DNA of 64,000 nucleotides from Dehalococcoidia bacterium (GCA_965247635.1 CBDFHJ010000010.1:773918-837917); one strand, 5' to 3'. Positions 41,612-45,013 are shown, numbered from the stretch's first letter. Translations and numbers: made by a program. Notes: generated by a model from the sequence alone, not told the origin.

Positions 41612-42229
41612 ATGACAGAACAGACTGTCGCTCAATCCACCACGCGCTGGTACATCATCCACACCTACTCCGGCCAGGAAGACCGGGTTAAGAAGAACCT
41701 GGAGCAGCGGATCGAGTCCATGGACGCCCGGGACAAGATCTTCCAAGTGGTGGTGCCCACGGAAGAGGAGATTGAGATCAAGGACGGCCGCCGCAAGTCG
41801 GTGCAGCGCAAGGTGTTCCCGGGTTACATATTGATCCAGATGATCATGGACGACGATAGCTGGCGGGTAGTGCGCGAGACGCCTGGCGTTACCGGGTTCG
41901 TGTCCGCGGAGGACGAGCGGGAGCGCCGGCCCAAGCCCATACCGCTGGAGGAACGGGAGGTCGAGCAGATCCTCAATCGCATCGAGGTGGCTGAGCCACG
42001 GGTGCGGGTGGCCCTGACGAGGGGCCAGCCGGTGCGTATCACCTCCGGTCCGTTCGCCGACTTCATGGGCGTGGTGGACAACATCGACGAGGACAAAGGG
42101 AAAGTGCGCATCGTCGTATCGTTCTTCGGGCGGGAGACGCCCGTGGAGCCGTGGAGCTCGACTTTCTCCACCTGGAGAAAGTCTAACGAAGGAGACGACC
42201 GTTGGCCAAGCGTGTGCGCGCCATCATGA
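41612..42229 (+). CDS. nusG: transcription termination/antitermination factor NusG (3' end frameshifted by an 8-bp duplication)
   Basis: [19 protein letters not shown], the NGN domain, and [43 protein letters not shown]. Without the duplication the ORF would end [12 protein letters not shown] at 42186. Confidence 0.9.
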
Positions 42230-42630
42230 AGCTGCAGCTGCCAGCGGGCCAGGCCACGCCGGCCCCGCCGGTAGGCCCGGCCTTGGGCCAGCACGGGCTG
42301 AACATCATGCAGTTCATCAAGGAGTACAACGCTCGCACGGCTAACGACGTGGGCACTGCTATCCCCGTGGAAATCACGGTCTTCGAAGATAGGTCTTTTG
42401 CCTTCGTGACGAAGACCCCTCCAGCCCCGGAGTTGATCCGAAAGGCCATCGACATCGAGAAGGGCAGCGGACGCGCGCTCCATGAGAAGGTTGGGACTAT
42501 CGACCGCTCCAAGATCCGTCAGATCGCGGAGACGAAGCTCAAGGACCTCAACGCCTCCTCTGTGGAGAGCGCGATGCGGATCATCGAGGGCACGGCCCGT
42601 AGCATGGGCGTGGAAGTAGTGGAGGGCTAA
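42202..42630 (+). CDS. rplK: 50S ribosomal protein L11
   Basis: [37 protein letters not shown] start with AAGGAG at 42189-42194. Confidence 0.95.
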
Positions 42631-42632
42631 GC

Positions 42633-43352
42633 ATGGCAGGGGCCAAGCATGGCAAGCGATACGAAGGTGCGGTGGCGTTGCTGGAAGCGGACCGCGAGTA
42701 CGCCCCCAGCGACGCGATCAGCCTGGTCAAGCAGATGGCCGCCGCCAAGTTTGACGAGACGGTGGAGCTGCACCTGCGGACCAGCGCCGACCCCCGTCAC
42801 GCCGATCAGCAGCTGCGGGGTGTGGCCGTGCTCCCCCATGGTCTGGGACGGGCGGTCCGAGTGCTGGTCTTCGCCCAGGCCGACGCCGCCCGTGACGCCC
42901 TGGGGGCAGGCGCGGAACACGTGGGAGCCGACGACCTTGTCCAGCGTATTGAGGGAGGGTGGATAGAGTTCGACGTGGCCATCGCCACACCGGACATGAT
43001 GGGCAGGATAGGACGGCTTGGCCGGCTCCTTGGCCGGCGCGGGCTGATGCCCAACCCCCGTACGGGGACGGTGGTCCAGCCCCAGGACGTGGGCAACGCG
43101 GTGGCGGAGGCCAAAAAGGGACGGGTGGAGTTTCGGATAGACCGCACGGCGATCATCCACTCGCCCATCGGCAAGGTCAGCTTCGACGAGCAGAAGCTGA
43201 TGGAGAACCTGGCTGCGGTGGTGGACGCGATCAACCAGCAAAAGCCCACCGGCATCAAAGGACAGCTGGTGAAGACCGCCTACCTGACCTCCACCATGGG
43301 CCCCAGCGTTCCGTTGGAGCTTGTCAGCACCATGGCGCTGCGGGTAGACTAG
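42633..43352 (+). CDS. rplA: 50S ribosomal protein L1
   Basis: KFDETVELHL.T..DPRHADQQLRG and GRLGR.LGRRGLMPNP..GTV. Confidence 0.95.
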   Translation: MAGAKHGKRYEGAVALLEADREYAPSDAISLVKQMAAAKFDETVELHLRTSADPRHADQQLRGVAVLPHGLGRAVRVLVFAQADAARDALGAGAEHVGADDLVQRIEGGWIEFDVAIATPDMMGRIGRLGRLLGRRGLMPNPRTGTVVQPQDVGNAVAEAKKGRVEFRIDRTAIIHSPIGKVSFDEQKLMENLAAVVDAINQQKPTGIKGQLVKTAYLTSTMGPSVPLELVSTMALRVD

Positions 43353-43512
43353 CGCTTAGAGGATTTAGCTGAGTCGCCACCAGAGACAGCGGGTTCCCCG
43401 ACAAGTCGGGGATTAAACCATCGCCCGCCGAGGTGCGCACCAAGCGTCTGACCAAACCAGACCAGCGTGCCCGCGTCTTTGGAGGCGGGCATTTTGTTAT
43501 TCCGAGGTTGAA
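43353..43512 (+). promoter_or_regulatory. putative rplJ (L10) leader with an attenuator-like hairpin
   Basis: A 160-nt untranslated gap before rplJ. TGCCCGC-N10-GCGGGCA at 43468-43491 is followed by ATTTTGTTATT, 12 nt before the GTG start. The structure was not verified against the L10-leader model. Confidence 0.4.
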
Positions 43513-44538
43513 GTGCCTACCGAAACGAAGCGACGCATCATAGCGGAACTGGCGGACCAGATCGCCCGCGCGACGCTGGCTATCGCCACTGACTTCAGCG
43601 GGCTGGGCGTTAACGAACTGACGGAGCTGCGCCGCCGGCTTCGCGCCCGCTCGGCGGAGTACCGCGTGGTGAAGAACCGGCTGGTAGTGCTCGCCGCGAA
43701 GGAGGCGGGCAAGGACGGCTTCGTCGAGCTCGTGGAGGGCAGTACCGGCATTGTCTTCGGCTACGGGGAGGCGGTTGACGCGGCGAAGGCGCTGGATGAA
43801 TTCATCAGGGCCACCCGGTCGCAGTTGGTGGTGCGCAACGGCATCCTGGACGGCAGTCCCCTCAATAGGGGCCAAATCACTGCCCTGGCCAGCTTGCCGC
43901 CCAAGGAGGAGCTGCTGGCCAGGTTGCTGGGCCAACTCCAGGCGCCTGTAGCCAGATTGGTCAACGTGCTCATCGGGCCGCTTCAGGGCCTTGCGATCGT
44001 GCTGCAACGACGGGCGGAGCAGCTGGACGGGCCTAAGGCCTCCGAGACAGACGAACCTGAGGCCCCCGAGACGGACGAACCTGAGGCCTCCGAGACGGAC
44101 GAACCTAAGGCCTCCGAGACAGACGAACCTAAGGCCTCCGAGACAGACGAACCTGAGGCCCCCGAGACGGACGAACCTGAGGCCCCCGAGACGGACGAAC
44201 CTGAGGCCTCCGAGACAGACGAACCTGAGGCCTCCGAGACAGACGAACCTGAGGCCCCCGAGACGGACGAACCCGAGGCCTCCAAGACAGACGAACCTGA
44301 GGCCCCCGAGACGGACGAACCTGAGGCCTCCGAGACAGACGAACCTGAGGCCTCCGAGACAGACGAACCTGAGGCCCCCGAGACGGACGAACCCGAGGCC
44401 TCCAAGACAGACGAACCTGAGGCCCCCGAGACGGACGAACCTGAGGCCTCCGAGACGGACGAACCTGAGGCCTCCAAGACAGACGAACCTGAGGCTCCTG
44501 AGGAACCTGAAGACCCCGAGAAGGACGGCACAAAATAG
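43513..44538 (+). CDS. rplJ: 50S ribosomal protein L10 with a ~160-aa acidic tandem-repeat C-terminal extension
   Basis: The N-terminal ~170 aa are canonical L10 (..YRVVKNRL..GSTGIVFGY.., L12-binding helix LLARLLGQLQAPVARLVNVL). These are followed by 19 copies of E(T)DEPEA(S/P). Confidence 0.9.
   Translation: MPTETKRRIIAELADQIARATLAIATDFSGLGVNELTELRRRLRARSAEYRVVKNRLVVLAAKEAGKDGFVELVEGSTGIVFGYGEAVDAAKALDEFIRATRSQLVVRNGILDGSPLNRGQITALASLPPKEELLARLLGQLQAPVARLVNVLIGPLQGLAIVLQRRAEQLDGPKASETDEPEAPETDEPEASETDEPKASETDEPKASETDEPEAPETDEPEAPETDEPEASETDEPEASETDEPEAPETDEPEASKTDEPEAPETDEPEASETDEPEASETDEPEAPETDEPEASKTDEPEAPETDEPEASETDEPEASKTDEPEAPEEPEDPEKDGTK
44035..44500 (+). repeat. 24-bp coding tandem repeat (about 19 units) with a 120-bp higher-order period
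   Basis: Unit GCC[TC]CCGAGAC[AG]GACGAACCTGAG. The 5-unit block 44161-44280 is almost exactly repeated at 44281-44400. Confidence 0.95.
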
Positions 44539-44547
44539 CTAGATACC

Positions 44548-44605
44548 GTGCTATCCGTTCGTGCCGAGCTTGTCGTAGCACGATGACGTCCCGACAAGTC
44601 GAGAC
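44548..44605. repeat. dispersed hairpin repeat between rplJ and rplL
   Basis: CGTGCTATCCGTTCGTGCCGAGCTTGTCGTAGCACG..CCCGACAAGTCGAGAC, related to the CGTTCGTGCCG..CTTGTCGAAGCAC family at 9620-9685. Confidence 0.6.
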
Positions 44606-44632: not shown

Positions 44633-45013
44633 ATGGCGATGACCAAAGATGACCTAATGGAGGCTATCAAGGGCCTTTCGGTGCTGGAGCTGTCGGAGCT
44701 GGTGAAGGCACTGGAGGAAGAGTTTGGTGTGAGCGCGGCCGCTCCGGTGGCCGTGGCCGCGGCACCTGCAGCAGGCGGCGCCGCGGAGGCGGAGGAGGAG
44801 CAGACCGAGTTCACCGTGGTGCTTCAGGAGATAGGCCCCAACAAGATCAACGTGATCAAGGTGGTCCGCGAGCTCACGAGCCTGGGCCTGCGCGAAGCAA
44901 AAGACCTGGTCGAGTCCGCTCCGGCCAACGTGCGAGAGGCCGTTGCCAAAGAGGAGGCCGAGACCACCAAGGCGAAGCTGGAGGAGGTTGGTGGCGTCGT
45001 GGCGGTCCAATAG
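44633..45013 (+). CDS. rplL: 50S ribosomal protein L7/L12
   Basis: [19 protein letters not shown], an Ala-rich hinge, and [24 protein letters not shown]. Confidence 0.95.

Follow-up and report, generated by a model that had tools for sequence, protein, structure and literature searches.

The rplJ locus and the L10 body

The window, by which we mean the whole 64,000-nucleotide stretch of DNA that was analysed, contains a ribosomal stalk operon in the standard order nusG-rplK-rplA-rplJ-rplL-radC, and its rplJ gene encodes a 341-residue protein L10 in which a conventional bacterial body is followed, in frame, by a long acidic tail. The genes of the operon and the parts of the L10 body are as follows.

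41612-42229: nusG, operon member upstream of rplK
42202-42630: rplK, operon member
42633-43352: rplA, operon member
43362-43506, + strand: region 5' of rplJ that resembles an L10 leader (match to Rfam RF00557 L10_leader, below threshold)
43513-44538, + strand: rplJ, GTG-initiated, coding for 341 aa, stop codon included (ORF list, Pfam PF00466, NCBIfam NF000955)
43513-44028, + strand: canonical bacterial L10 body, residues 1-172 (NF000955, AlphaFold2 pLDDT >90, alignment to solved uL10)
43903-44028, + strand: helix alpha8, residues 131-172, on which L7/L12 dimers would dock (DSSP on the AlphaFold2 model; alignment to 1zav)
44633-45013, + strand: rplL (L7/L12), 126 aa (Pfam L12_N, 3.3e-22; L12 C-terminal domain, 1.8e-27)

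The rplJ product matched PF00466 (1.4e-22; 80 bits against a cut-off of 22.8) and the bacterial L10 equivalog model NF000955 (140.6 bits against a cut-off of 85), the latter aligning residues 4-170 with positions 1-166 of its 168; because this match runs nearly from end to end, a complete L10 precedes the repeat array described below. Only one L10 gene was found in the 2.81-Mb, 10-contig assembly, a second match being weak and of low complexity. The protein has the features expected of a member of the uL10 family, namely a full-length equivalog match, a long alpha8, the rplK-rplA-rplJ-rplL context and its status as sole copy, and we conclude that rplJ is the single, functional L10 gene of this uncultured Chloroflexota bacterium, whose class was sampled as Dehalococcoidia; the names borne by its homologues and related loci likewise point to MAGs of Dehalococcoidia type. 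The L7/L12 encoded downstream is normal, with both of its Pfam domains complete.

When compared with solved structures, residues 4-167 aligned with residues 6-174 of Thermotoga maritima L10 (1zav_A), gapless through alpha8, and the alignment with Escherichia coli L10 reached only to about residue 153. In our AlphaFold2 model, which was built on a 36-sequence alignment and has a pLDDT above 90 over residues 1-172, DSSP assigned a continuous helix to residues 131-172, likewise at pLDDT >90. As this alpha8 is as long as that of the 1ZAV complex, we presume that the window's L10 carries three L7/L12 dimers. The 5' region upstream of rplJ matched RF00557 over the full model (1-138) with 29.2 bits, below the gathering score of 44 (E = 0.066), which is suggestive only of an L10 leader.

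A separate irregularity lies further upstream, at the 3' end of nusG, where 8 bp are duplicated in tandem at positions 42141-42156 (CCGTGGAG CCGTGGAG); four close relatives lack the duplication. Through the resulting frameshift the protein exchanges its conserved end for 28 unrelated residues and has 205 aa in place of 188, its ORF extending into rplK; the nusG-rplK spacer of about 150 nt seen in the relatives is missing here. The duplication may be either a real lesion or an assembly error.

The repeat array and the acidic tail

Downstream of the L10 body the gene is made up of the following elements.

44032-44495, + strand: in-frame 24-bp minisatellite of 19.3 units (TRF, unit table)
44170-44456, + strand: five-unit higher-order repeat, in which 167 bp recur without mismatch 120 bp further on (longest exact run per shift)
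44488-44538, + strand: last, degenerate unit followed by the non-repeated end PEAPEEPEDPEKDGTK and a TAG stop (translation, unit table)

TRF described the array as 464 bp with a period of 24 (19.3 copies, 91% matches, 0 indels, score 760). It is in codon phase with rplJ and its unit reads P-[EK]-A-[SP]-[EK]-T-D-E, which bears out the first-pass annotation of this DNA, where about 19 in-frame 24-bp copies had been placed behind a full L10 domain; the 19 units given for the window's rplJ are an assembly count. Variation is confined to 5 of the 24 unit columns, two of them synonymous and three giving E/K or S/P changes, and two linked parental unit types can be distinguished (GCC-CCC-GAG-ACG and GCC-TCC-GAG-ACA). 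The same annotation had proposed a 120-bp higher-order repeat, and here the duplication proved real but its register did not hold: 44161-44280 and 44281-44400 differ at three positions, whereas 44170-44336 and 44290-44456 are identical over 167 bp, with units 7-11 equal to units 12-16. Beyond the array a degenerate unit and then PEEPEDPEKDGTK close the protein, the non-repeated end of which is ..EEPEDPEKDGTK. The array thus shows the traits of a coding minisatellite, with a unit that is a multiple of 3 bp, near-identical tandem copies and a copy number that varies in close relatives (see below).

ORFs in other frames over the array, among them one of 204 aa and SGSS-rich on the - strand (43983-44597) and one of 183 aa on the + strand (43991-44542), were set aside as shadow frames of repetitive or GC-rich DNA, since both the family match and the conserved end are found only in the rplJ frame. 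Long stop-free antisense frames also occur at rplJ loci that carry a short allele.

The tail encoded by the array and its end is a low-complexity C-terminal segment of 169 residues (173-341) that lies wholly past the L10 model. It is composed of only nine residue types, D and E making up 46%; counted from residue 171 onwards there are 78 acidic and 8 basic residues (net charge -70), with A+E at 44% (76/171), P at 18%, D at 13% and T at 12%, and Leu171, at the junction with the body, is the sole L, I, V, M, F, W or Y. The few lysines of the tail bound peptides that include ASETDEPEAPETDEPEASETDEPK and TDEPEAPETDEPEASETDEPEASETDEPEAPETDEPEASK. Addition of the tail takes the protein from a pI of 9.96 (body) to 4.05 and doubles its mass from 18.4 to 36.8 kDa. 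AlphaFold2 left the tail unstructured, at a pLDDT of about 45 and with zero secondary structure, and this prediction supports the view, already put forward in the first-pass annotation, that the tail is a disordered polyanion.

Alleles, relatives and the distribution of acidic tails

The 90%-identity protein cluster that holds the window's L10 has members of 341, 213, 213 and 190 aa, and contigs that are about 95% identical to the window at the DNA level (93-97% in the flanks) account for this range. A 3-unit allele encoding 213 aa was found in four samples (loci L032, L033, L034 and L039), one of the contigs being a short-read scaffold. A 13-unit allele is carried by locus L038, in which 11 of the 13 units are identical copies of a GCT-CCT-GAG-GCG variant; this variant corresponds to unit 2 of the short allele and does not occur in the window's array. 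L038 is on a low-coverage contig (3x) with indel errors and split genes, and one extra G inside its array truncates the called protein to 190 aa; the frame without this G gives 293 aa. Both the 3-unit and the 13-unit alleles retain the end EEPEGPEKDGTK, the position of the stop and the rplJ-rplL spacer. Given these different unit counts and unit variants in contigs of about 95% identity, the array is an in-frame minisatellite that has expanded independently at least twice, in keeping with the recent expansion and variable length that had been predicted for it. The length changes are presumed to be neutral; the allele sequences are too similar for a meaningful test of the dN/dS type. A search of JGI metagenome contigs with the junction pattern CAACGACGGGCGGAGCAGMTGG found no further alleles, its one hit being a chance match in unrelated GC-rich DNA.

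More distant L10s have progressively less beyond the domain: 41 aa in P0001, about 27 aa or one unit in P0002 (87% identity) and about 13 aa in P0003 (72%), and the tail therefore grew stepwise in this lineage. Across the wider survey of relatives, tails are the exception. Of the 23 family genomes in which an L10 was matched, 22 have a protein that ends 0-8 aa past the domain, as do 37 of 40 family or order relatives, against which the 341 aa of the window's protein is about double the normal length, as first supposed. The tailed relatives in the order include G025, with 154 aa that are acidic, PE-rich and of long period, and G036, with 58 aa.

To gauge frequency more broadly, we used two samples. 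Among the nearest 150 representatives of 50% clusters, 30 of the 145 full-length L10s (21%) have at least 40 extra residues, a share that is probably inflated by a bias of cluster representatives towards long members and by their wider taxonomic reach. About 26 of these 30 tails are acidic and of low complexity, several are tandem repeats, and the longest reach 180-182 aa (P0192, P0152). The class was also sampled evenly, with 400 species, which gave a list of 150 L10 matches; only the 20 with an open frame of at least 240 aa were inspected, and these comprised 15 cases of open upstream sequence, four in-frame L10-L12 fusions and one acidic tail (G199, 138 aa). Open-frame length, with 15 of the 20 frames reflecting mere open upstream sequence, is a poor proxy for a tail and was abandoned as such. 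Tails longer than 100 aa were confirmed in two of the 150 class matches listed (G199 and G000, the latter being the window's own genome). Elsewhere, in a set of 80 loci from many phyla, acidic L10 tails of 83-137 aa occur in the Pyrinomonadaceae/Pyrinomonadales (Acidobacteriota), and L10 tails are also present in Actinomycetota (P0094, P0066, P0102). Long L10 tails therefore appear to be uncommon per species yet recurrent, and in the various lineages they are uniformly acidic with almost no K or R, which is equally true of the tails on L3.

The fusions form a distinct group. At these loci rplJ reads without a stop into rplL, with the L12 initiator Met kept in frame, giving a predicted L10-L7/L12 fusion of about 310-317 aa. 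They were found in Nitrospira/Nitrospiraceae MAGs (L055, L064, L065, L067, L069, L070, L073-L075, L080, L084, L085, L093, L095-L100 and L104) and in one genus of the Dehalococcoidia class, where all four sampled genomes have one (L151-L153 and L164); P0045 and P0125 are further cases. As about 21 independent Nitrospira assemblies and 4/4 genomes of one Chloroflexota genus share this arrangement, a consensus error at every locus seems unlikely.

An acidic-window scan of the whole genome showed that L10 is not the only ribosomal protein with such an extension, and identified long acidic C-terminal tails on four others, all encoded outside the window.

C10:199274: L3 (rplC), 403 aa, tail of about 198 aa with about ten VADEVAEPEAAVEEA-type repeats of some 15 aa
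C10:204251: S17 (rpsQ), 152 aa, long acidic C-terminal tail
C10:207684: S5 (rpsE), 288 aa, long acidic C-terminal tail
C10:424336: L9 (rplI), 250 aa, long acidic C-terminal tail

In each of these the tail is outside the fold, the Pfam domains ending well before the low-complexity segment. L3 tails extend well beyond this genome, with acidic extensions of 60-198 aa in most genera of the family that differ in sequence and are often tandemly repeated. That L3, L9, S5 and S17 of one genome bear tails comparable to that of L10 points to a ribosome-wide or lineage-wide cause. A simple pattern in which all tails occur together is unsupported: the L10-tailed order relatives G025 and G036 have L3 open frames of 227 and 210 aa, i.e., apparently without an L3 tail, and tails therefore come and go protein by protein.

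Several further observations were made in passing. The rplC tail of G014 (L134) consists of PEADEAP[AS] units, nearly the same 8-residue motif as the L10 variant of L038, a likeness that suggests either convergence or shared 'preferred' tail units. In the window's own genome, L5 (rplE, C10:205366) has a possible N-terminal extension of about 100 aa, its start codon being putative, and RpoC, RpoA and GyrA have acidic ends. Other short-period arrays in the genome are at C10:114114-114797 (15 bp x 46) and C8:4409-4789 (16 bp x 24), and 24-bp arrays of GGCTCCGCCGTGGGTGTAGGCGTA are at C1:6410-6675 (x 11) and C1:12067-12398 (x 14).

Origin and role of the L10 tail and its place among known systems

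Our preferred reading, to which we give a probability of roughly 0.6, is that the tail is a generic polyanionic brush generated by slippage and tolerated by the ribosome. A short acidic C-terminal extension would have arisen in the genus lineage, where tails of about 13 and about 27 aa are seen at 72% and 87% identity, respectively. After this, one 8-codon unit may have been amplified by replication slippage or unequal recombination, mechanisms that would fit both the higher-order repeat and a unit of 24 bp. With a unit length divisible by three, each gain or loss would keep the frame, the end (EEPExPEKDGTK) and the stop, and strains could have amplified different unit variants to arrive at 3, 13 and 19 units. 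The product would be a normal L10, with its rRNA-binding body and an alpha8 of T. maritima length for the L7/L12 dimers, from whose distal tip a 169-residue, proline-stiffened, disordered polyanion (net -70) would extend. The tail is presumably translated and retained on ribosomes, and, most likely repelled by rRNA and by acidic L12, it would be exposed to solvent, where its role is most likely no more than that of a charged excluded-volume brush, tolerated or of weak benefit; a specific function is probably absent. On this reading the L10 tail is of one kind with the acidic tails that L3, L9, S5 and S17 carry in the window's genome. We favour this reading because the length looks unconstrained, because most relatives are tailless, and because the acidity can be understood as the residue of a filter against sticky tails. 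Two of the facts could equally mean selection, in that acidic L10 tails recur in several phyla and the end is kept across the alleles.

Selection is central to an alternative that we consider doubtful, in which the acidic tails on L10, L3, L9, S5 and S17 make up an adaptive, ribosome-wide polyanionic corona and the length of the L10 array is tuned; its possible roles include ribosome solubility or spacing, nucleoid exclusion, and buffering of Mg2+ or polyamines. Several tailed ribosomal proteins in one genome, L3 tails that persist across most family genera despite sequence turnover, and the acidity of all the tails, with almost no K or R, would be accounted for, and the authors of a survey of low-complexity regions argued that tails of this kind point to a function because they are costly on abundant proteins (Ntountoumi et al. 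2019, NAR 47:9998; PMC6821194). The distribution is however patchy, with no L10 tail in 22 of the 23 family genomes that have an L10 match and L3 frames of only 227 and 210 aa in the L10-tailed G025 and G036; 3, 13 and 19 units within strains of about 95% identity look unconstrained; and a purifying filter would also leave uniform acidity, since a basic or hydrophobic tail would adhere to rRNA or cause aggregation. We also entertain, as a speculation to which we give little credence, that the long and rapidly evolving polyanionic tails of this family's ribosome (on L3, L9, L10, S5, S17 and others) have been co-selected as a 'charge corona' in which the L10 minisatellite would serve as a strain-level length dial on the GTPase-recruiting stalk, altering factor traffic or L12 dynamics.

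A role restricted to the stalk, by analogy with P0/P1/P2, in which the tail would influence how translational GTPases are recruited or how far the L7/L12 C-terminal domains reach and how they move, we judge to be improbable. Such a role would suit the anchoring of the tail at alpha8's distal tip, where L12 dimers dock, the independent origin of acidic L10 tails in several lineages, and the conservation of the non-repeated end from allele to allele; conservation among sequences that are at least 94% identical nevertheless weighs little, the end (..PEKDGTK) lacks the conserved hydrophobic motif of P-stalk C-termini, the archaeal L10/P0 models reach only residues 4-98 with 24-31 bits against 331-381, L7/L12 is complete and normal, nearly all family relatives manage without a tail, and proteins outside the stalk bear similar ones. 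It is very improbable, finally, that faulty assembly produced the long array or its frame and that the true gene has few units, like the 213-aa allele, or ends earlier. The 8-bp duplication that frameshifts the neighbouring nusG makes local assembly errors possible, and the related 3x contig of L038 has obvious indel errors, one of them within its array; against this, the window's 464-bp array runs without indels, in frame, into the conserved end and stop, its two parental unit types and five-unit repeat fit stepwise duplication and not collapse or mis-joining, its contig is 975 kb long in a 10-contig assembly, and a long array, in this case of 13 units, recurs in an independent assembly of a different sample.

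Surveys have counted the acidic low-complexity tails that bacterial ribosomal proteins carry, though these have never been explained. The rplJ locus offers an unusually clean natural series: as relatives become closer, L10 has 0-8, about 13, about 27, 41, about 121 and finally 169 extra residues, and the steps to 41, about 121 and 169 reflect the copy number of one 8-residue unit. The series supplies variants with 0, 3, 13 and 19 units for questions on factor recruitment, ribosome solubility and assembly. It also shows that a hypervariable minisatellite can be accommodated even in a core ribosomal gene, and that L10s of 250-350 aa in Chloroflexota, Acidobacteriota and Actinomycetota are not to be dismissed as gene-calling errors.

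Of the known systems, the T. maritima L10-(L7/L12)6 stalk base (PDB 1ZAV/1ZAW/1ZAX) matches the window's L10 end to end over the body and alpha8, with a helix of equal length, but T. maritima L10 stops a few residues past alpha8 (180 aa) where the window's protein continues as a long tail; none of the solved uL10 chains that we aligned has a comparable one. The comparison with P0 that had been drawn in the first-pass annotation holds only as an analogy. P0 (aL10/uL10) is a homologous stalk-base protein with a flexible acidic C-terminal extension off the stalk, as is the window's L10, but its partner is P1/P2, whereas that of the window's L10 is a bacterial L7/L12 with a C-terminal domain of its own. 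In P-stalks a conserved hydrophobic C-terminal peptide, shared by P0 and P1/P2 (aL12), binds translational GTPases; a hydrophobic end motif of this type is absent from the tail, and in a search for P0 architecture the models NF003095, NF003099 and NF003098 covered only residues 4-98 of the window's L10 (24-31 bits against cut-offs of 331-381). With no P0 domain, no hydrophobic end and a normal L7/L12, the tail lacks the defining features of P0, and a P0-like identity as a factor-recruiting peptide is rejected.

The array itself resembles the coding VNTRs of bacteria in having near-identical units of a multiple of 3 bp, a higher-order repeat and copy-number differences at the level of strains. 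Known bacterial coding VNTRs are mostly in surface or secreted proteins under diversifying selection; the host here is an essential, highly expressed ribosomal gene, and the consequence is an in-frame change of length and not on/off switching.

In the literature on acidic tails of bacterial L10 or tandem repeats in rplJ, the only report that we found was the 2019 survey (PMC6821194), in which bacterial L10, and L3 too, are listed as ribosomal proteins for which 20 or more orthologs bear low-complexity regions. The regions it describes in ribosomal proteins are mostly C-terminal, A/E-rich and at the ribosome surface, with no assigned function, and the window's tail shares with them its C-terminal position, its acidity, its low complexity and a presumed location at the ribosome surface. 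More than 70% A+E was reported for 20 of the 32 L10 cases, compared with an A+E of 44% and a P of 18% in the window's tail of E, P, D, T and A, a difference in a majority trait that does not define the class. Unlike the tails of that survey, it is built of near-identical 24-bp units whose copy number is polymorphic between near-identical strains, and at 169 aa it is among the longest that we found, the maximum being 180-182 aa. The tail of the window's L10 is a fast-evolving example of an already known kind of ribosomal-protein appendage.
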